In this document: in pieces, positions 2,401-54,552 of the stretch
Layout: each line of letters opens with the position of its first letter
Position numbering within the stretch: the first letter of the stretch is position 1
Assembly (NCBI GenBank): GCA_030429765.1
Contig: JAUIER010000001.1
Location: forward strand, 65,014 to 129,013
Direction of reading: 5' to 3'
DNA from: a bacterium
GTDB taxonomy: Bacteria; Omnitrophota; Gorgyraeia; Zapsychrales; Zapsychraceae
DNA: 64,000 bases
Position numbers and translations under genes: made by a program
The notes under the pieces: model-generated
Databases searched by the model: none
What the model was told of the DNA's origin: nothing
Seen by the model: only the letters and a program-made list of their open reading frames with translations

Positions 2401-3867
2401 ATGGAACATGATGATATCAAAAGAGTTAGGGAAGAGAAGTTAAATGGTCTCGTAGATGCAGGGGTCAATCCCTACGGCGGCAAATATGAGCCAACCCACA
2501 CAGTCGAGCAAGTGCTCACCGATTTTAAAGCGGATGAAAAGGTTAAGATTGCCGGCCGCCTAATGGCCAAGCGCAGCCACGGCAAGGTATTGTTTGCGGA
2601 TATCGAGGACCAGACCGGAAAGATTCAGCTATTTATCAAGATTCAGGATCCCGAGGCCCAAATGACGCGGATCGTTAAGTCCCTGGATATCGGAGACATC
2701 ATCGGTGTGGAAGGTGAAACCTTCACCACCAAAATGAACCAGGACAGTGTCCGTGTGACCCATATCGAATTTCTCACCAAATCATTAAAGACATTACCCG
2801 AAAAATGGCATGGGCTCAAAGACGTGGAGATCCGTTATCGACAGCGTTATGTTGATTTGATCGCCAATAAGGATGTGCGTGATGTCTTTATCAAACGCAG
2901 TAAGATTGTCTCATTTATCCGCCAGGTTTTGGATGATCGCGGATTTCTCGAGGTCGAAACACCGATGCTCCAGCCGATGGCCGGAGGGGCTCGGGGACGA
3001 CCATTCAAAAGTTTACACAATGCCTACGATCTGGATGTGTATCTGCGCATCGCCCCGGAACTTTATCTCAAGCGATTATTGGTTGGCGGATTGGAACGTG
3101 TGTATGAAATCAACCGAAATTTCCGTAACGAAGGTGTGTCGACACGTCACAATCCTGAGTTTACCATGCTTGAAGTCTATCAGTCATATGGCGATTTTGA
3201 GGACATGATGCGCTTGACCGAAGACCTGGTGGCGGGGGCGGCCAAAGAAATCACCGGCTCGTACGTTGTGCCTTATCAGGGCAAAGAGATCAATTTTGAA
3301 CCGCCATGGGAACGTCGCAGTTTTGCGGGAATCATGAAAGAAAAATTTGATATCAATCCCGACGACGAAGCTTCCGTGATGCTCGAGAAAGTCAAGGTTC
3401 ATAAAGGCGGCTCGGTCAAAGTGGACAAGCTTACACGCTCTGCCGTTATGAAGATCGCCGAGGATTTGCTGGAAGAAGATGAGATCATCAATCCGGTATT
3501 TTTTACGGACTATTTTACCTTCCTGTGTCCATTGGCCAAGACATTACCTGAAAATCCGGCCTTGTCTGCCCGTTTTGAAGCGTTTGTGGCGGGAATGGAG
3601 ATCGGTAACGCCTATTCGGAGTTAAACGATCCGACAGAACAGCGTCGACGTCTACTCGAAGATCTCGAAGATGATGTCGAGACCGGCAACCGGACCATCG
3701 ATGAGGATTTTCTTAACGCGCTGGAATACGGAATGCCTCCGGCGGGAGGATTGGGCATCGGGATCGACCGGATGGTCATGCTGTTAACAGATTCGCCGTC
3801 CATCAGGGACGTCATTCTGTTTCCGTTGATGAAACCCACTCAGGAAAAAACTCAAGACAAAGCATGA
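2401..3867 (+). CDS. lysS: lysyl-tRNA synthetase, class II
   Basis: N-terminal OB anticodon-binding domain plus class II aaRS catalytic core (motifs FRNEG, GGLGIGIDR). AAGGAAG ribosome-binding site before the ATG at 2401. Confidence 0.9.
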   Translation: MEHDDIKRVREEKLNGLVDAGVNPYGGKYEPTHTVEQVLTDFKADEKVKIAGRLMAKRSHGKVLFADIEDQTGKIQLFIKIQDPEAQMTRIVKSLDIGDIIGVEGETFTTKMNQDSVRVTHIEFLTKSLKTLPEKWHGLKDVEIRYRQRYVDLIANKDVRDVFIKRSKIVSFIRQVLDDRGFLEVETPMLQPMAGGARGRPFKSLHNAYDLDVYLRIAPELYLKRLLVGGLERVYEINRNFRNEGVSTRHNPEFTMLEVYQSYGDFEDMMRLTEDLVAGAAKEITGSYVVPYQGKEINFEPPWERRSFAGIMKEKFDINPDDEASVMLEKVKVHKGGSVKVDKLTRSAVMKIAEDLLEEDEIINPVFFTDYFTFLCPLAKTLPENPALSARFEAFVAGMEIGNAYSELNDPTEQRRRLLEDLEDDVETGNRTIDEDFLNALEYGMPPAGGLGIGIDRMVMLLTDSPSIRDVILFPLMKPTQEKTQDKA

Positions 3868-13030: not shown

Positions 13031-14005
13031 ATGACCATTACCTTTATTCGGATTTTCTTTTTACTCGTCAGTGGGGTCACGGGATATTATGTCGGTAGTC
13101 TGCTGCAATCACCGCTGTTTGGCGCGCAGATTGGATTCTTAAGCGGATTGTTGATCATTTTCGTTGAACGATCTATGCAGCGGGTTTCGGTCCGGGGGCT
13201 GTCGAGTATGGTCTTTGGGCTATTGTTGGGATTTTTTATGGCGAAGCTTCTGGCCGATATTTTGTCGTTGATCCCGTTATCCGAATTTATTCATTCCGTC
13301 ACGCGCGTAATTTTGACGCTTGTGTTTTCTTACATCGGAACCGTGATCGCGCTGCGCGGTAAAGATGAATTCAATATCATTATCCCGTATGTGAAATTCA
13401 GACGGGAAGACGTCAAGGACGCCGTTGTGTTGCTTGATTCGAGCGCGATTATTGACGGACGGGTCACCGATATTTTTAAAACGCATTTTCTGGCCGGTCG
13501 TTTGGTGGTGCCGCGGTTTGTCCTGCATGAAATTCAGCATCTGGCGGATTCGGCGGATGATCTCAAACGTGAACGCGGTCGACGGGGACTGGAGTTATTA
13601 CGCTTGATGCGTGAGGATCCCAAGATGGATGTGCACATTCACGAAGATGATCTGACCGGCCCCGAACCGGTGGATGCCAAGCTGATCCGTCTGGCCAAGA
13701 TGATGGACGCCCGTATCTGCACAACGGATTTTAATTTGGGGCGAACCGCCGAACTTCAAGGGGTAGATACACTGAATATTAACGAGTTGGTTCACGCGGT
13801 CAAGTCGGTGTTGTTTACCGGTGATAAGATTGATGTCAAACTAATCAAAGAGGGAAAGGAACCGCATCAGGCTATCGGCTATATGGAAGATGGAACAATG
13901 ATTGTGGTAGCGAATGCCAGTCAGTACATTGGACAGGAAGTCAAAGCGGATGTGACGTCCGTACTGCAAACGCAGGCCGGTAAAATGATTTTTGCGAAGA
14001 TTTAG
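13031..14005 (+). CDS. yacL: PIN and TRAM domain membrane protein (YacL-like)
   Basis: N-terminal TM helices, a PIN domain (VLLDSSAIIDGR...) and a C-terminal TRAM domain. The ATG at 13031 avoids the out-of-frame overlap with radA implied by the ORF-track start at 12965. Confidence 0.7.
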   Translation: MTITFIRIFFLLVSGVTGYYVGSLLQSPLFGAQIGFLSGLLIIFVERSMQRVSVRGLSSMVFGLLLGFFMAKLLADILSLIPLSEFIHSVTRVILTLVFSYIGTVIALRGKDEFNIIIPYVKFRREDVKDAVVLLDSSAIIDGRVTDIFKTHFLAGRLVVPRFVLHEIQHLADSADDLKRERGRRGLELLRLMREDPKMDVHIHEDDLTGPEPVDAKLIRLAKMMDARICTTDFNLGRTAELQGVDTLNINELVHAVKSVLFTGDKIDVKLIKEGKEPHQAIGYMEDGTMIVVANASQYIGQEVKADVTSVLQTQAGKMIFAKI

Positions 14006-15193: not shown

Positions 15194-15889
15194 ATGAATA
15201 TCACACTACTAAATATCCTAATATTCTTTGTTGGCTTTTCCGTGGTTTGGGCCGTGTTGGTGGCTGTTTTTTTTGCCAAGGAAATTCGCTGCACCAAGGA
15301 AAAAGATCCGGCCGCCAAGGGATATCTGGAGATTATTTTATTATACCCGGGGCTACACGCGCTGATCGCCCATCGGATGGCTCATGCCATCTGGAATTTT
15401 CGGATGCGATTTCTCGCGCGCTTTTTATCGCAAATATCACGTTTTATTACCGGCATCGAGATTCATCCCGGCGCCAGGATTGGAGACGGCTTGTTTATCG
15501 ATCATGGAATGGGCGTGGTGATTGGTGAAACCACGATCATCGGAAACAATGTGACACTTTTCCAAGGTGTAACACTCGGCGGAACAGGCAAGGAAACCGG
15601 CAAGCGGCATCCGACGCTGGGCAACAATGTTGTCGTCGGGACCGGGGCCAAGGTTTTGGGAAATATCACGATCGGGGACAATACCTATGTGGGGGCCAAC
15701 GCTGTGGTGCTTCGATCGGTGCCCGCGAATACCACGGTAGTGGGCGTGCCCGGGCATATCACCAAGAAAGACGGAAAGCGGGTGGATCCGATGGATCACG
15801 GCGGGGTATCTGACCCGGTCATGGTTCATATGAAGGATATGATCAAACGCATCAAGACCCTCGAAGACAGTCAAAAGCGAAAGTCTTAA
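15194..15889 (+). CDS. cysE: serine O-acetyltransferase
   Basis: Left-handed beta-helix hexapeptide repeats with the CysE-type motif IHPGARIGDGLFIDHGMGVVIGETTIIG. Confidence 0.8.
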   Translation: MNITLLNILIFFVGFSVVWAVLVAVFFAKEIRCTKEKDPAAKGYLEIILLYPGLHALIAHRMAHAIWNFRMRFLARFLSQISRFITGIEIHPGARIGDGLFIDHGMGVVIGETTIIGNNVTLFQGVTLGGTGKETGKRHPTLGNNVVVGTGAKVLGNITIGDNTYVGANAVVLRSVPANTTVVGVPGHITKKDGKRVDPMDHGGVSDPVMVHMKDMIKRIKTLEDSQKRKS

Positions 15890-45306: not shown

Positions 45307-45768
45307 ATGGGACAGGCAATTATCTCCAACAAGAAGGCGTTTCGGGATTTTGAGATCCTGGACAAGTGGGAATGCGGCATCGAGCTCAAGGGCTCGGAGG
45401 TCAAATCCATTCGTGCGGGCCATGTGAACTTCAAAGATACCTTTGCCCGGGTCGAAAAAGGGGAGATCCTGCTTTACAGCCTGCACATAGATCCCTACAA
45501 ACAGGCCAGTTACGAAAATGTGGATCCGGACCGTGTCCGCCGGCTCCTGCTGCACAAGCGTGAGGTCCGAAAGATCGATAACGAGGTCACCCTCAAAAAT
45601 TACGCCCTGATTCCAACCAAGCTCTACTACAACAAACGCGGATTCGTCAAGGTCGAACTGGCCATGGGCAAGGGCCGAAAATTCTACGATAAGCGTGAGG
45701 TGATCAAGAAGCGTCAGATCGCCCGCGATCTCAACCGGGCCATCCGGACCGGTTCCCGCCGCCGCTAG
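45307..45768 (+). CDS. smpB: SsrA-binding protein
   Basis: SmpB fold motifs (NKKAFRDFEILD...GIEL.GSEVKS) and a basic C-terminal tail. Located 3.3 kb upstream of ssrA. Confidence 0.9.
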   Translation: MGQAIISNKKAFRDFEILDKWECGIELKGSEVKSIRAGHVNFKDTFARVEKGEILLYSLHIDPYKQASYENVDPDRVRRLLLHKREVRKIDNEVTLKNYALIPTKLYYNKRGFVKVELAMGKGRKFYDKREVIKKRQIARDLNRAIRTGSRRR

Positions 45769-47979: not shown

Positions 47980-48388
47980 ACCTAAATTATAAACCTCCTG
48001 CAAGTATTTGCCATGAGTAGACATACGCATCCGGGTGGGTAGTTTTACCTATCCGTCTGGAGGCCGGATATTTAGCATTTGCCAAGTTCCAGAGCATCGA
48101 CTATACTTATAGACTGTTCTTTAAAAATTTGGGGGTGATCTGGTTCTGCTTCGTTTCCGACATTTTGAATTGGAGTTTTGAAATGTCGTTAACTTCGCAG
48201 GAACTAGTTCGAAGCAGAAATTCTTCGAAGCTCCTAGAGTATTTTCTGATCAAGCATAGAAGATTCTAAGCTTGATCATCCGTTCTTTAAAAATTTGGGG
48301 GTGATGTGGTTCTGCTTCGTTTCCGACATTTTGAATTGGAGTTTTGAAATGTCGACAACTTCGCAGGAACTAGTTCGAAGCAGAAATT

Positions 48389-48432
48389 CTTCGAAGCTCC
48401 CGGTTTTTTATATTGTGTAGCGAAGAAGATTA
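48389..48432 (+). repeat. 45-bp direct repeat flanking the GIY-YIG gene (left copy)
   Basis: CTTCGAAGCTCCCGGTTTTTTATATTGTGTAGCGAAGAAGATTAT. Near-identical right copy at 48796-48840. Confidence 0.7.
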
Positions 48433-48494
48433 TAGAGCTATCCTTAATCTATGCATATGCGCATAGCTCCAAAAGGTAGAGAGGAGAATGTGCC

Positions 48495-48752
48495 ATGCAG
48501 TATGTATACGTGTTGGTTAGCCAAGTAAATAAATCAAAAATCTATATTGGCAGAACTGAAGATCTAGATTCTCGCTTTAGACAGCACAATTCTGGTCAAG
48601 GCGATTATTCAAGGCGCTGGAAACCTTGGCAAATTGAGACCTATATTGCCTTTTCATCAGAATCATTGGCAGTCAAATTTGAAAAGTATCTCAAGGGTGG
48701 ATCGGGCTTTGCTTTTCTAAAGAAAAGATTTTTACCTGAGATTGATTCTTAA
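48495..48752 (+). CDS. free-standing GIY-YIG nuclease-domain protein (YhbQ/UPF0213-like, 85 aa)
   Basis: Motifs YVYVL...KIYIGRTEDLDSRFRQHNSG match the GIY-YIG catalytic core, including the conserved Arg. GAGGAG ribosome-binding site 8 nt upstream. Confidence 0.75.
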   Translation: MQYVYVLVSQVNKSKIYIGRTEDLDSRFRQHNSGQGDYSRRWKPWQIETYIAFSSESLAVKFEKYLKGGSGFAFLKKRFLPEIDS

Positions 48753-48795
48753 ATATATTGAAGTTTGCAATCCTTGTGCTCGAAGATTCAATCCT

Positions 48796-48840
48796 TCGAA
48801 GCTCCCGGGTTGTATTATTGTGTAGCGAAGAAGATTATTT
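48796..48840 (+). repeat. 45-bp direct repeat flanking the GIY-YIG gene (right copy)
   Basis: CTTCGAAGCTCCCGGGTTGTATTATTGTGTAGCGAAGAAGATTAT. Confidence 0.7.
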
Positions 48841-49023
48841 GTTCTTTAAAAATTTGGGGGTGATCTGGTTCTGCTTCGTTTCCGACATTTTGAATTGGAG
48901 TTTTGAAATGTCGACAACTTCGCAGGAACTAGTTCGAAGCAGAAATTCTTCGAAGCTCCTAGAGTATTTTCTGATCAAGCGTAGAAGATTTTAAGCTTGA
49001 TCATCCGTTCTTTTAAAATTTGG

Positions 49024-49682
49024 GGGTGATGTGGTTTCGACTTGAGATGTTTGAGTCTTAGGTGGCATGCCGAGGAAGTCTGGTTGGCCTCGTTAATCAT
49101 CCGGACAAACAATAAATGGTAACGATTCAACGTTAACATTCGCAGACTTTGAAAGAGAAACTGAGAATTCAGTGGCTCCTCAAGGTTTCGCACCTGTATT
49201 AGCTTAAGAATAAGCTAATCCCTTATACAAATCATGTCTGTGGATTTGTATAAGGACCTTTACAGACTAGCGCAGTTGAGGTCTAGGCGACTGTTGCGAA
49301 ATTTTTAGACTGGCCGTCGGTAATCCTGTGCATTGGAGTGCAGGCGGTAAGATTAATAAATGTACTAAGCATGTAGAGGCTTAAGGCCGGCTCGTTAAGG
49401 ACCGGGGTTCGATTCAAAGGAGTCGACTTTTGGAGTAATCCAGAATGCTAAACTTGGCTTACATCAAGGAAGCCCAATTCTCAAACCTTATCTTGCGAAG
49501 GGTAATCTTGAGGGGTGAAAGCCCTGCAGAGACTTCTCCGGAAGGAGAGATGAAAGGCTCTACCAATATTGGTAAATCTATGCCTTTCATAATACGCCAA
49601 GCTCCTCGACGAATGTTGAGGATGAAGAGATAGTCCATGCTGATCGGGTAACGATCAGATTAGTGTCCCCGCACCTCCACTT
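49024..49682 (+). ncRNA. ssrA: tmRNA (SsrA) gene interrupted by an intron-like insertion in the T-loop
   Basis: 5' end GGGGGUGAUGUGGUUUCGAC resembles the E. coli tmRNA 5' end. PK1 region UGCCGAGG...GGCCUCG is present. Tag frame ends ...APVLA with UAA-GAA-UAA. Near the 3' end is CUAAGCAUGUAG. The T-arm is CGGGGUUCGAU | insertion | UCCCCG, followed by the acceptor strand CACCUCC-A-C, which pairs with the 5' end including a G3:U pair. Confidence 0.85.
49416..49667 (+). other. candidate group I intron (about 252 nt) within the tmRNA T-loop
   Basis: The 5' exon ends in U. Intron GUCGA (49424-49428) pairs with exon UCGAU, giving a U:G wobble at the splice site (P1). The GGA immediately 5' of it pairs with exon 2 UCC (P10). 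There is a GACU...AGUC P7-like pairing with a UCUCC-GGAA-GGAGA hairpin between (P8-like), a CUGAUCG-GGUAA-CGAUCAG hairpin (P9-like) and a terminal G at 49667. No ORF lies inside. Confidence 0.65.
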
Positions 49683-49691
49683 TAAATTAAA

Positions 49692-49743
49692 GGCCTTGTA
49701 AATTGTTGTTTTATAATAATTTACAAGGCCTTTTGTTTTTTAA
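49692..49743 (+). terminator. intrinsic terminator of ssrA
   Basis: 15-bp hairpin AAGGCCTTGTAAATT...AATTTACAAGGCCTT followed by a T-rich run. Confidence 0.8.
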
Positions 49744-49755
49744 AATGTTTTAGTG

Positions 49756-49806
49756 CCCAAACAGTGCCCAAATCAATCCAAAACATCGGTAAACAAATCT
49801 AACACT
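49756..49806 (+). repeat. intergenic repeat R (GTGCC-N5-GGTGCC ... AAAACA.CGGTAAACAAA.CTAACA), copy 1
   Basis: Three roughly 50-bp copies with over 80% identity at 49756, 50818 and 52456, plus a short fourth copy at 52694. All are intergenic in the island downstream of ssrA. Confidence 0.7.
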
Positions 49807-49917
49807 ATATTACTACGAACATTTACCCTACCTTTCCGATCTCCTTTTTGTTAACATATTTCAATCATAAAAAGTGGCTCAATTTTCGGGGGACGCTTAA
49901 CTATAGGGGAAATTAAC

Positions 49918-50817
49918 TTGAAATTCGTTTTTGTATTGACGTTTCATAAAGATATTGAAATCTGCCAAAACCGTATCAGAATGCTGCGTAGGCACAATCC
50001 TGACATACCGATTTACGGGGTTTATGGAGGTGAGCCGGATGAAGAAGCGGCTTTTCGCAAGGCCTTAGAAGGGAGATTAGACGGCTATTATTATTTTGAT
50101 GAACCTAAGGATGGCATGTGGAAATGGTTTAATTTTGATCTTCTGGTGACGAAATGGTACACAGACATAGGGAAAGATATGGACTTTGATTCGGTAATTT
50201 GGGTGCAATGGGATCAGCTCGTATTAGCGCCTGTAAAAGAACTGTTTAAGAACATAAAAAAAGGTGAAATGTTCATCACTGGTTTGCGGCCAGCTCAGGA
50301 AGTTATGGATTGGTGGTGTTGGGTGTCGAAGGACGCAGAGCAGGCGCCACCTGGGCATGGATATGAAACCTATATGGACTTTCTAAAGCATCTTAAGGAA
50401 GAATATAATTACAGTGAAGAGCCGGTATTTTCTCAGCCTTTTATAAGTATTTTCCCACGCGAATTTTTAGATCCTTACAGCAAACTAGAGTGGCCTATCG
50501 GTGGATACGGTGAATATCGTATGCCCATGTATGCACAAGTTTTTGGGGTGCCGTTTTACCGGTCTCATCATTATGAAGTATGGTGGCCCGATGATCCCGA
50601 GCAAAGGAATCCATCGGATGAAGAGAGGGTACTAACAGCATGGCAGGGTCCACTTCCCCTAAAACGAATTATGGAATTGTCCGCCGGTGAGAACGGACAC
50701 AAATTGATTCATCCCTATAGTAGAATTTACCCTCTGAATGCACTTGATTGGCTGAGATTGCTCAGGGACAAATTCTTAAACCGAAGGTATAGTCAGCCGG
50801 ATTCGGAAGAAAAGTGA
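49918..50817 (+). CDS. hypothetical protein (Trp-rich, no recognised domain)
   Basis: TTG start with a GGGGA ribosome-binding site. 299 aa. First gene of the island. Confidence 0.45.
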   Translation: MKFVFVLTFHKDIEICQNRIRMLRRHNPDIPIYGVYGGEPDEEAAFRKALEGRLDGYYYFDEPKDGMWKWFNFDLLVTKWYTDIGKDMDFDSVIWVQWDQLVLAPVKELFKNIKKGEMFITGLRPAQEVMDWWCWVSKDAEQAPPGHGYETYMDFLKHLKEEYNYSEEPVFSQPFISIFPREFLDPYSKLEWPIGGYGEYRMPMYAQVFGVPFYRSHHYEVWWPDDPEQRNPSDEERVLTAWQGPLPLKRIMELSAGENGHKLIHPYSRIYPLNALDWLRLLRDKFLNRRYSQPDSEEK

Positions 50818-50870
50818 GTGCCCAAACGGTGCCTAACGAAAACCAAAACACCGGTAAACAAACCGAACAA
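50818..50870 (+). repeat. intergenic repeat R, copy 2
   Basis: GTGCCCAAACGGTGCCTAACGAAAACCAAAACACCGGTAAACAAACCGAACA, starting at the stop codon of the preceding gene. Confidence 0.7.
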
Positions 50871-51028
50871 GAGCTAAATAACCGATCACAAGGATTCATT
50901 CATTGCGGAATACATTTGTGTCACATCTTGTAATGAAAGGCAGTGATTTTTTAGCGGCTCGTTGCTATTGATGTTCTCGATTATTATTGTAATTTATTTC
51001 AGACCATCCGGAAAGTTAGGAGATTAAA

Positions 51029-51592
51029 ATGAAGAAAGTATTTTTGATAGTAACAGTATTGATGAGTATATCGATATTTTCGCAAGCTCAAGAGGCTGAT
51101 GTCCGCAAAGAATATTATCCGAATGGTCAAGTTCAATATGAAAGAAGTTATGTGAATGGTATACGACATGGTGTTTCAAAGATGTATTCAGAAGATGGTA
51201 ATTTGTGGCAAGATGTTATGTATGTTAATGGAAAAAAAGAGGGTCTTTGGAGGGAATATTACCCGAGTGGTGAGTTAAAAGAAACTCGTATTTATAAGAA
51301 CGATAGTGTTAATGGAATTGCCGTTAGATATTTTGAGGATGGGAAGCGTGAAAGAGAAACAATGTGGGTTAACAATATGCCTGACGGCAATGAAGGTATA
51401 AAAACTTGGGATTATTATGAAAATGGAAATCTAAAAGGCGAATATTTTTTTGCTCATCGTAAGGGCCATCGTAAGGATTATTATGAAAATGGTCAGGTAT
51501 CATTAGAGATGCAAATTGATAATGGTGAATTTTACTGTAAGAATTATGATGAAAGTGGAAGTTTTGTATCTTCTGAATGTCCAACTATGTAA
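51029..51592 (+). CDS. small secreted MORN-variant (YwqK-like) repeat protein
   Basis: Signal peptide plus about 6 MORN_2-like repeats (EYYPNGQ...). Third paralogue in the window. Confidence 0.65.
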   Translation: MKKVFLIVTVLMSISIFSQAQEADVRKEYYPNGQVQYERSYVNGIRHGVSKMYSEDGNLWQDVMYVNGKKEGLWREYYPSGELKETRIYKNDSVNGIAVRYFEDGKRERETMWVNNMPDGNEGIKTWDYYENGNLKGEYFFAHRKGHRKDYYENGQVSLEMQIDNGEFYCKNYDESGSFVSSECPTM

Positions 51593-51634
51593 GAAGATTG
51601 CTTTTTAGAATCTTTTACATTTTTTGAAGCCCAA

Positions 51635-52387
51635 ATGAAGTCCCGTAAGTTTATCCAAAGAGACAATTGGTATGGTATATTATCAGTTATGAAAATAATT
51701 CAATTTAAAATTCTATTTATGATGATGGTAATGTTGTTGAGTCCGTCGTTAAGTTTTGCTGATAGTTGGGCAGGATTTGAAGGTGTTCAAGATAAGTGGA
51801 AGGCGTTTTCAGAAGAGCATATGAGTCTAATGCGAGAGGAGTTTGAACAAAGCTCTTGGGCCAAGCGGGGAAAAAAATTTGAGATGAAATGGACTGAATT
51901 AAATCCAACTCTATTTAAGAAATATTTTCCAGACTATAAGTTTTTCGGAGAAATGGGTTCTTCATTTGCCATCGATAAGGCGGGATCAATAATTCGATTT
52001 AAAAATATAATGCTACTAGGAAGGAAAAACATAGCATCTCCAGATCTACAAATTAAATATTTTTTTTCGTTTCTTGAAGAGTCAGATTTGAAAGTGACTG
52101 ATTCTGAAACCGCTGCCGATGTGGGGCGAATGATTGACTGGATTCAGAGTTCAGGTAGATCGAATTATAAAACAGGTAGTCCGGATGATTATAGGGTAAC
52201 TCGAAAAGATTATGGGTGGTATGTAAATACCCCCGATTTTAGTAGAGGCACGTCTGCTTATCTGCATGGGGATTATGAAATAATTACGGACGAAGTAGGT
52301 AACATATTGGATGTTAAGCGCCACGATATGATGGGCGGAATTGGCGCTGGGTCTGGTGGTGCGGTGAGAAAATTAGAAGATATTTAG
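51635..52387 (+). CDS. hypothetical secreted protein
   Basis: Probable signal peptide beginning at the internal Met (MKIIQFKILFMMMVMLLSPSLSFA, about 51692). No recognised domain. Confidence 0.45.
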   Translation: MKSRKFIQRDNWYGILSVMKIIQFKILFMMMVMLLSPSLSFADSWAGFEGVQDKWKAFSEEHMSLMREEFEQSSWAKRGKKFEMKWTELNPTLFKKYFPDYKFFGEMGSSFAIDKAGSIIRFKNIMLLGRKNIASPDLQIKYFFSFLEESDLKVTDSETAADVGRMIDWIQSSGRSNYKTGSPDDYRVTRKDYGWYVNTPDFSRGTSAYLHGDYEIITDEVGNILDVKRHDMMGGIGAGSGGAVRKLEDI

Positions 52388-52423
52388 TGTGTGCTTACTA
52401 CGTAAGATAAATAAATTTAAAAA

Positions 52424-52455
52424 AGGCACTTCACACATGTGAGGTGCCTTTTTTG
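52424..52455 (+). terminator. conserved terminator hairpin family, copy a (AGGCACTTCACA-CATG-TGAGGTGCCT plus T-run)
   Basis: GC-rich stem plus T6. The same GGCACTTC...GAGGTGCC stem recurs at 53584, 59144 and 60642. Confidence 0.7.
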
Positions 52456-52510
52456 GTGCCCAAACGGTGCCTAACGAAAACCAAAACAACGGTAAACAAA
52501 CCTAACAAAA
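52456..52510 (+). repeat. intergenic repeat R, copy 3
   Basis: GTGCCCAAACGGTGCCTAACGAAAACCAAAACAACGGTAAACAAACCTAACA, immediately after terminator copy a. Confidence 0.7.
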
Positions 52511-52693
52511 CCTAAACAACCGGACAGTTTTAAAAAGGTGTTTTCCGATGAGACTTGAAGCAATATATTGAAAATAAAGGGTTTATGTAAAATCGACTAA
52601 ACGTATCCCCGCACCTCCATAATTTAAATAAGGGTTTGTAAGTAACTGTCACACAGCTATTTGCAAACCCTTTTTTATTTTGGGATGCCGAGG

Positions 52694-53558: not shown

Positions 53559-53582
53559 CCAATATATATAAAATTTCAAAGA

Positions 53583-53614
53583 AGGCACTTCACACCCGTG
53601 AGGTGCCTTTTTTA
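53583..53614 (+). terminator. conserved terminator hairpin family, copy b
   Basis: GGCACTTCACACCCGTGAGGTGCC plus T6. Confidence 0.7.
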
Positions 53615-53654
53615 TTGCCTTGAGTCAATGTTTAGCAGGTAGTAAAATATTCAA

Positions 53655-54284: not shown

Positions 54285-54552
54285 ATCTGGTGACTAAACA
54301 CCCGTGCCAGACTCCACGCAATCGAATCATGCCAAAATCCCACCATGATGTAATGGCAAGTAGGTATCGTGAATTATTTTAAAAGATTGATGTCGTATAG
54401 ATCAGCTGCATCTCTATGTGAGGTGTCGTTTTTGTACTCAAGTGGTAGAAATGTTCTGATCTTGAGTCAATGAAGAAACGGGAGTAGAATAACCTAAAAA
54501 CAGAAAGTTTTAGCTTATTATTTAGCAAGTTGGAAAACATGAGGAAATACTG

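Follow-up and report, generated by a model that had tools for sequence, protein, structure and literature searches.

The question raised by the locus studied here is what has been inserted into the T-loop of a bacterial transfer-messenger RNA (tmRNA) gene, ssrA, and how a complete tmRNA could be made across the insertion. The gene lies in a stretch of 64,000 nucleotides (nt), hereafter the window, at positions 65,014 to 129,013 (forward strand) of contig JAUIER010000001.1 in assembly GCA_030429765.1, which comes from a bacterium of the phylum Omnitrophota (family Zapsychraceae). An earlier note, made from the sequence alone, had proposed that the insertion is a group I intron lacking an open reading frame (ORF). 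With high confidence we identify it as a group I intron of subgroup-IA type architecture, belonging to the known "position 7" family of tmRNA T-loop introns.

Insertion site and splice junctions

The tmRNA gene was located at 49022-49679, with its parts in the standard order and its T-loop interrupted by a 252-nt insertion. Searching the 64-kb window with Rfam gave only two matches: RF00023 (tmRNA) at 49030-49416 (122.3 bits), with the alignment stopping in the T-loop, and, directly abutting it, RF00028 (Intron_gpI) at 49403-49658 (50.9 bits against a gathering score of 50, E 5.4e-10), which was the single match of its kind. This was the search with a group I model that the earlier note had asked for beforehand. 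ARAGORN found neither tRNA nor tmRNA in the raw 64-kb window, and after in-silico deletion of the 252 nt it reported a complete tmRNA, with its start at 49022 and GNDSTLTFADFERETENSVAPQGFAPVLA as the tag. The parts of the gene are as follows.

49022..49413, + strand: ssrA exon 1; matched by RF00023, found by ARAGORN only after intron removal
49022-49028, + strand: acceptor 5′ strand GGGGGUG, in exon 1
49118-49207, + strand: tag reading frame GNDSTLTFADFERETENSVAPQGFAPVLA followed by a stop, in exon 1
49403-49407, + strand: T-stem 5′ strand, in exon 1, which also holds the pseudoknots
End of exon 1, + strand: T-loop nucleotides 1-6, UUCGAU
49414..49665, + strand: group I intron, 252 nt, ORF-less; RF00028, family profile, and intron-less relatives
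49666..49679, + strand: ssrA exon 2, TCCCCGCACCTCCA; T-loop nucleotide 7 (U) and T-stem 3′ strand CCCCG

Exon 2 also supplies the acceptor 3′ strand CACCUCC and the discriminator A. The pair G49024·U49676 is the G3·U70 alanine identity pair of the tmRNA acceptor, and the 3′ CCA is unencoded in this gene.

The junctions read GGGGUUCGAU/UCAAAGGAGUCGA...GAUUAGUG/UCCCCGCACCUCCA, with slashes marking the splice sites. TC is present at both junctions, so that three cuts giving an identical spliced product are possible, and 49414-49665 is the only cut that places U at -1 and also leaves a terminal G. The bounds proposed earlier, 49416-49667, belong to a correctly described sequence of 252 nt and are therefore shifted by +2; the same holds for the guide sequence GUCGA, which is present at 49422-49426 rather than at 49424-49428. 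The insertion site lies between T-loop nucleotides 6 and 7 (UUCGAU/U), the site known as position 7.

Among 185,579 species genomes searched, the nearest kin of the SmpB protein encoded in the window were found in four metagenome-assembled genomes of Candidatus Omnitrophota (61-71% identity), followed by Planctomycetota (<=49%). In all four Omnitrophota relatives the tmRNA gene that lies downstream of smpB is uninterrupted (164-194 bits). Because two of them read ...GGACCGGGGTTCGATTCCCCGCACCTCCA, which is exon 1 of the window joined exactly to exon 2, the insertion is a clean addition of 252 nt. Its deletion restores the T-arm, and the junction is then identical to that of the intron-less relatives.

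The longest ORF within the intron (49445-49633, 62 amino acids [aa]) gave no match in a Pfam search and is unconserved, the longest ATG-initiated ORFs in homologous introns being 7-57 aa long. No ORF for a homing endonuclease (LAGLIDADG, GIY-YIG or HNH) was found inside the intron, and a nearby 85-aa GIY-YIG gene lies outside its bounds. The proposal that the intron carries no ORF holds in practice.

Helices of the intron and covariation in its homologues

All helices from P1 to P9 consist of canonical pairs in the window intron, and an unconstrained minimum free energy (MFE) fold recovers every one of them except the P7 pseudoknot. They are listed below, with percentages referring to paired cells in the 18-sequence alignment described afterwards.

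49409-49415 with 49420-49426, + strand: P1; 7/7 pairs canonical, loop AAAG
49419-49421 with 49666-49668, + strand: P10, guide GGA with UCC at the start of exon 2; 3 canonical pairs
49431-49442, + strand: P2, UGGA-GUAA-UCCA with a GNRA loop; 98.6% of cells paired
49453-49458, + strand: P3 5′ strand CUUGGC; pairs with 49596-49601 in 6 canonical pairs
49464-49525, + strand: P4-P6 domain
49464-49469/49506-49511, + strand: P4; 98% paired
49473-49475/49500-49502, extension 49478-49480/49497-49499, + strand: P5; 89% paired
49512-49516/49521-49525, + strand: P6 with a GAAA loop; 100% paired
49529-49534, + strand: P7 5′ strand, G-(A bulge)-GACU; pairs with AGUCC 49632-49636
49535-49548, + strand: P7.1 hairpin UCUCC-GGAA-GGAGA; present in some homologues, absent in others
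49550-49558/49582-49590 and 49561-49565/49570-49574, + strand: P7.2, long hairpin; MFE fold
49596..49601, + strand: P3 3′ strand GCCAAG
49603..49622, + strand: P8, UCCUCGAC-GAAU-GUUGAGGA; 8 canonical pairs
49623..49636, + strand: J8/7 (UGAAGAGAU) and P7 3′ strand AGUCC; fits the Rfam consensus UgAAGAUAUAGUC
49640-49646 with 49652-49658, + strand: P9, CUGAUCG-GGUAA-CGAUCAG; 7 canonical pairs
49665, + strand: terminal (omega) G; directly precedes exon 2

P1 is formed by exon UCGAU plus intron UC (49409-49415), paired to GAGUCGA (49420-49426). It contains the splice-site wobble U49413·G49422, which is U·G in 18 of 18 homologues, and the guide GUCG is invariant in all 18 family members though it was outside the search pattern. 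In P7, G49529 and 49531-49534 pair with 49632-49636, leaving A49530 bulged; G49531-C49635 is probably the guanosine-binding pair. The segment between the two P7 strands holds P7.1, P7.2, the P3 3′ strand, and P8. An insertion of P7.1/P7.2 between P7 and the P3 3′ strand, as found here, is the architecture by which Michel and Westhof reportedly characterized subgroup IA in 1990. A P7.1 region has also been named for tmRNA introns in the literature (PMC11915505).

The sequence features listed in the earlier note were all present in the window. Its P1 with a U:G wobble proved to be 7 bp long, its P7-like GACU/AGUC pairing is P7 with the bulged A49530, its P9-like 7-bp hairpin is P9, and the last base is G as it had stated; P3 and P7, for which it had suggested a fold check, both consist of canonical pairs. 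The hairpin UCUCC-GGAA-GGAGA was misassigned: it had been taken for P8 and is P7.1, the real P8 being 49603-49622.

A search for homologous T-loop introns, also suggested earlier, was carried out by scanning metagenome contigs with the pattern GGTTCGAT-N(100-130)-AGACT-N(75-105)-GAAGANATAGTC, and about 30 introns at the same site were obtained. The scan gave 40 loci, exon 2 being located in 32 of them, and 29 loci yielded a tmRNA detectable by ARAGORN once an intron of 236-254 nt was removed from the same T-loop site. In most of these intron-bearing loci smpB is adjacent. Nine of the 40 matches gave no intron-form tmRNA under the exon-2 rule. The eight loci in which exon 2 was not found comprised five apparent chance matches and loci L025, L031, and L035, the last being interrupted by the contig end before exon 2; the 418-nt "intron" of locus L030, where no tmRNA was obtained, was rejected as spurious. 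L025 and L031 read G/CCCCGGCACC... or G/CCCCGCCGTC... after the intron, with exon 2 starting with C instead of U, and their restored T-loop or splice subsite may differ from that of the main family. Another contig with an intron-form tmRNA, L050, has two neighboring Rfam tRNA matches at 3156-3259 and 3494-3617, which at 104 and 124 nt are far over normal length and may represent tRNA genes with insertions.

The retrieved introns were 52-69% identical to the window intron. For covariation analysis, 18 sequences were aligned with MAFFT and compared with 500 column shuffles. The named structure was paired in 84.6% of cells against 73.0 ± 0.7% in the shuffles, none of the 500 reaching 84.6%, and double-sided changes were observed in 120 cells where 41 were expected. 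When the partners were slid by 1-3 columns, pairing dropped to 35-52%. Helices P2, P3, P4, P6, and P8 were 95-100% paired with many compensatory changes: both sides had changed in 4 of 4 pairs in P2, 4 of 6 in P3 (100% paired), and 6 of 8 in P8 (94.9% paired), and the helices of the P4-P6 domain also showed compensatory changes. The 66 columns that are invariant in the family, those of the guide sequence and J8/7 among them, are all the same in the window. An intron-only profile (nhmmer) prepared from 27 other tmRNA introns, with the exon flanks removed and the window excluded, gave a single match in the window, at 49420-49647 (E 9e-45, 147 bits). The boundaries, helices, homology, and covariation of the intron were demonstrated by these data.

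Several observations weigh against this assignment. The Rfam score is scarcely above the threshold; only 2 of 9 homologues pass this generic model, so that a borderline 50.9 bits is ordinary for the family, and the report that none of the Rfam group I seed sequences is bacterial (bioRxiv 10.1101/2020.01.27.920355) agrees with the low pass rate. The invariance of P7 in the family was built in and is no independent evidence, because both of its strands, the 3′ one together with J8/7, belonged to the search pattern; similarly, the G preceding exon 2 in 31 of 31 spliceable homologues was imposed by the rule used to locate exon 2. P7.2 (41% paired) and P9 (63% paired) were misaligned by MAFFT, and with the columns out of register these two helices rest on folds of single sequences, not on column covariation; when folded individually, most homologues were predicted to have a long hairpin equivalent to P7.2, and 28 of 28 sequences a hairpin of 6-8 bp equivalent to P9. 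P10 is unconserved, its two G-C pairs forming in 2-3 of the 18 sequences, so its support is weak, and of the earlier proposal for P10 what stands is that GGA and UCC of the window pair in 3 bp. Many group I introns can dispense with P10. Finally, subgroup IA is a reading of the architecture.

Comparison with known introns, splicing, and alternatives

Group I introns in the T-loop had been found in 343 tmRNA genes in 2020 (bioRxiv 10.1101/2020.01.27.920355), and 883 unique intron-form tmRNAs, mostly position 7 and from 21 phyla, were known by 2025 (PMC11915505), the phylum table including 18 position-7 intron forms in Omnitrophota. In a 2026 survey, tmRNA genes accounted for 6% of 846 bacterial group I introns (PMC13011429). 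The earlier statement that such an intron had been reported once is contradicted by these figures. The idea of an independent occurrence fares no better, as the window intron occupies the same main subsite (position 7) and is homologous in sequence and structure to other tmRNA introns. Nor is the lack of an endonuclease worth remark, since a homing-endonuclease gene is carried by 4.1% of tmRNA introns (PMC11915505) and its lack is the rule. What remains of the proposal is its core, namely a group I intron in a tmRNA T-loop without a homing endonuclease, which the RF00028 match, the helices, and the family profile bear out. The window intron fits the position-7 family on every feature tested and is at most of a known kind; it is an ordinary intron, and the claims of rarity and independent origin are not supported.

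With the position-7 family the window intron shares the host gene, the site UUCGAU/U, the U-1·G wobble, the terminal G, and the P7.1 region. Its size is similar (252 nt, with a mean of 293 nt in the founding sequences; PMC11915505), and an endonuclease gene is absent, as in 96% of members. There is no categorical difference, the retrieved members being at most about 69% identical to it. Its L9 is a 5-nt loop (GGUAA), whereas most members have a GAAA tetraloop; 5-nt L9 loops were also seen in three other members with long tags.

For the tmRNA intron of Clostridium botulinum (287 nt), self-splicing has been stated, and crystallization trials and a 5′-CGAU-3′ substrate oligonucleotide have been described (PMC2729099). 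The C. botulinum intron has reportedly been placed in subgroup IA3. Both introns are group I ribozymes without an ORF, located in the same gene and with the same P1 5′ exon CGAU, but the window intron is 35 nt shorter and comes from another phylum, and the two are likened here by description. Bacterial tRNA anticodon-loop introns (e.g., that of cyanobacterial tRNA-Leu) are likewise group I introns, small and without an ORF, that interrupt a loop of a tRNA-like domain, and their chemistry is presumably alike; they sit in the anticodon loop, which tmRNA lacks, whereas the window intron is in the T-loop. They mostly belong to subgroup IC3 and are not known to have P7.1/P7.2. Introns of tRNA and tmRNA have been mapped by common rules, U-1 and the terminal G (bioRxiv 10.1101/2020.01.27.920355). 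Introns of the phage T4 td type, of subgroup IA, have the P7.1/P7.2 insertion in common with the window intron, but no nucleotide similarity was detected when the intron was compared by blastn (distant mode) with 50,697 phage records. Those introns interrupt protein-coding genes, often with endonuclease ORFs.

Splicing is predicted from group I chemistry, by analogy with the self-splicing intron of C. botulinum. The ssrA gene would be transcribed as a single precursor, in which the intron would fold into the P1-P9 core. An external guanosine at the P7 pair G49531-C49635 would attack the phosphate that follows U49413, a nucleotide held by P1 in a U·G wobble. The 3′-OH thus freed on U49413 would then attack just downstream of the terminal G49665, and the 3-bp P10 may keep exon 2 in place during this second step. 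UUCGAU would thereby be joined to UCCCCG, and the 7-nt T-loop, the T-stem, and the acceptor stem, including G49024·U49676, would be restored; these are the parts that a tmRNA needs for alanylation and SmpB binding. Since it has no endonuclease gene, the intron most likely persists as a selfish element that does its host no harm; the patchiness of its distribution suggests that it has been gained laterally on occasion or lost repeatedly.

Three alternatives were weighed. The one that survives best is that the group I intron has decayed and no longer splices, this copy of ssrA being a pseudogene while a functional ssrA is present elsewhere or trans-translation has been lost. The locus is rearranged, with exon 2 duplicated at 52606 and three pseudo 5′ ends upstream, and the view taken here covers 64 kb of the genome. 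However, the core helices are all intact and canonical, none of the family-invariant columns has been lost, the exons read exactly as the junction of the relatives does, which looks functional, and an intact smpB is nearby and a proper terminator present; decay is very unlikely. It is hardly credible that the gene encodes a two-piece or permuted tmRNA from which RNases, and not splicing, take out the intervening sequence. Two-piece tmRNAs are known in other lineages (PMC11915505), but the order here is standard and unpermuted (acceptor 5′ strand, tag, pseudoknots, T-arm, acceptor 3′ strand), of the Rfam tmRNA models only the standard one, RF00023, matches, a 14-nt exon 2 is too short to remain bound by itself as a stable piece, and what separates the exons is recognizable as a group I ribozyme. 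Chance residence in the T-loop of some other small mobile element (a miniature inverted-repeat transposable element, an insertion sequence remnant, or a group II fragment), which the 2-nt TC repeat at both junctions and the status of ssrA as a hotspot for mobile DNA (PMC11915505) might suggest, has next to no likelihood and is effectively refuted by the group I covariance match, the homology and covariation with about 30 tmRNA introns, the empty phage BLAST, and the absence of terminal inverted repeats and a transposase from the insertion.

Surroundings of ssrA and significance of the intron

The following features were identified near the interrupted gene.

45307..45768, + strand: smpB, encoding the protein partner of tmRNA; Pfam PF01668 SmpB, E 8e-53
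48495-48752, + strand: stand-alone GIY-YIG nuclease gene, 85 aa; Pfam PF01541, E 4e-15
49689..49743, + strand: intrinsic terminator after ssrA; 20-bp hairpin and T-run

The smpB gene lies 3.3 kb upstream of ssrA and marks the chromosomal ssrA locus, which is in this respect a normal one. The tmRNA tag, GNDSTLTFADFERETENSVAPQGFAPVLA, is unusually long, with 29 codons and the ending VLA; long tags were also present in L005, one of the relatives, and in the intron-bearing metagenome tmRNAs L016, L021, L023, L024, and L040.

Four copies of the sequence TTTGGGGGTGATNTGGTT, which includes the first 14 nt of the tmRNA, are present: one at the real start of the gene (49019) and three upstream of it, at 48128, 48294, and 48853. 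The three extra copies, which repeat the region upstream of ssrA together with the first ~14 nt of the tmRNA, are contained in repeat units of about 166 nt, 97-99% identical, in the region 48115-49036. The fold of one such unit is better than those of its shuffles (z -3.2); it is a branched structure, closed by the tmRNA-like 5′ end, with a terminator-like hairpin after it. Searching these units against Rfam at E values up to 1 gave no family besides tmRNA itself. The only public contig with an identical SmpB, L001, ends 30 nt into the first upstream unit. A 78-aa ORF at 48758-48994, which had no family match and lies mostly inside a repeat unit, was treated as spurious.

The GIY-YIG gene is situated between the repeat units and is flanked by 59-nt direct repeats (48375-48433 and 48780-48838, 85% identical). 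Its product is a bare catalytic domain with faint matches to models of intron endonucleases. Homologues of 43-46% identity were found immediately downstream of ssrA in L002, L003, and L004, where ssrA is intron-less; the gene is for this reason not associated with the intron, and its candidacy as a free-standing homing endonuclease partnering the intron was rejected. Judged by these comparisons, it is a conserved lineage neighbor of ssrA that has switched sides in the window.

Downstream, the exon 2 sequence TCCCCGCACCTCCA recurs exactly at 52606-52619, 2.9 kb from 49666-49679, and this copy is likewise followed by a terminator hairpin and GTGCC...GTGCC motifs. About 125 nt after each copy align at ~65-70% identity, and nothing aligns upstream of the 14-mer; this 14-nt identity block begins exactly at the intron 3′ splice site. 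The interval 49680-52605 contains three ORFs, of 299 aa, 187 aa (a MORN-repeat protein), and 250 aa. No integrase was detected in these 2.9 kb by Pfam, NCBIfam, PHROGs, or PADLOC, and the interval resembles an integrase-less islet that has entered the 3′ end of ssrA. In the intron-less Omnitrophota relative L005, a 19-nt block, TCGATTCCCCGCACCTCCA, is present at 13366-13384 and 15301-15319 and reaches into the T-loop; the two blocks are separated by about 1.9 kb, in which the only ORFs are small ones, and a GTGCCC-N5-GTGCCC motif follows the first copy, as in the window. These observations suggest that the lineage harbors a family of small elements that target ssrA.

Other repeats were noted in the same region. 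A 67-nt repeat starting with GTGCCCAAACGGTGCCTAAC is found at 49753-49819, 50818-50884, and 52456-52522, and a terminator-like hairpin, GGCACTTCACAC..GTGAGGTGCC with a T-run, recurs two to three times (52407-52460, 53566-53619, and 54416-54434). The recurring hairpins separate small genes, some of which encode PEP-CTERM or choice-of-anchor proteins, and the region downstream of ssrA is cassette-like in layout. It is conceivable, though unlikely, that the ssrA locus records an undescribed interplay of mobile elements and that the upstream units are expressed small RNAs or a new repeat that copies the start of ssrA. Were the T-loop the usual place of crossover, the intron would divide the attachment site, and the traffic of islands at ssrA could be limited or altered as a result.

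The window intron raises no new question for group I introns or trans-translation. SmpB identity to the window protein is ~52% in the nearest intron-bearing loci, and the four closest sampled relatives are without the intron; its absence there fits the sporadic gain or loss already known. To a family of 883 sequences in 21 phyla it adds one further divergent member, from a sparsely sampled phylum. Its value is mainly for annotation: ARAGORN misses the tmRNA gene and Rfam shows a tmRNA ending in the T-loop, so that the genome could wrongly appear to be without an intact ssrA.

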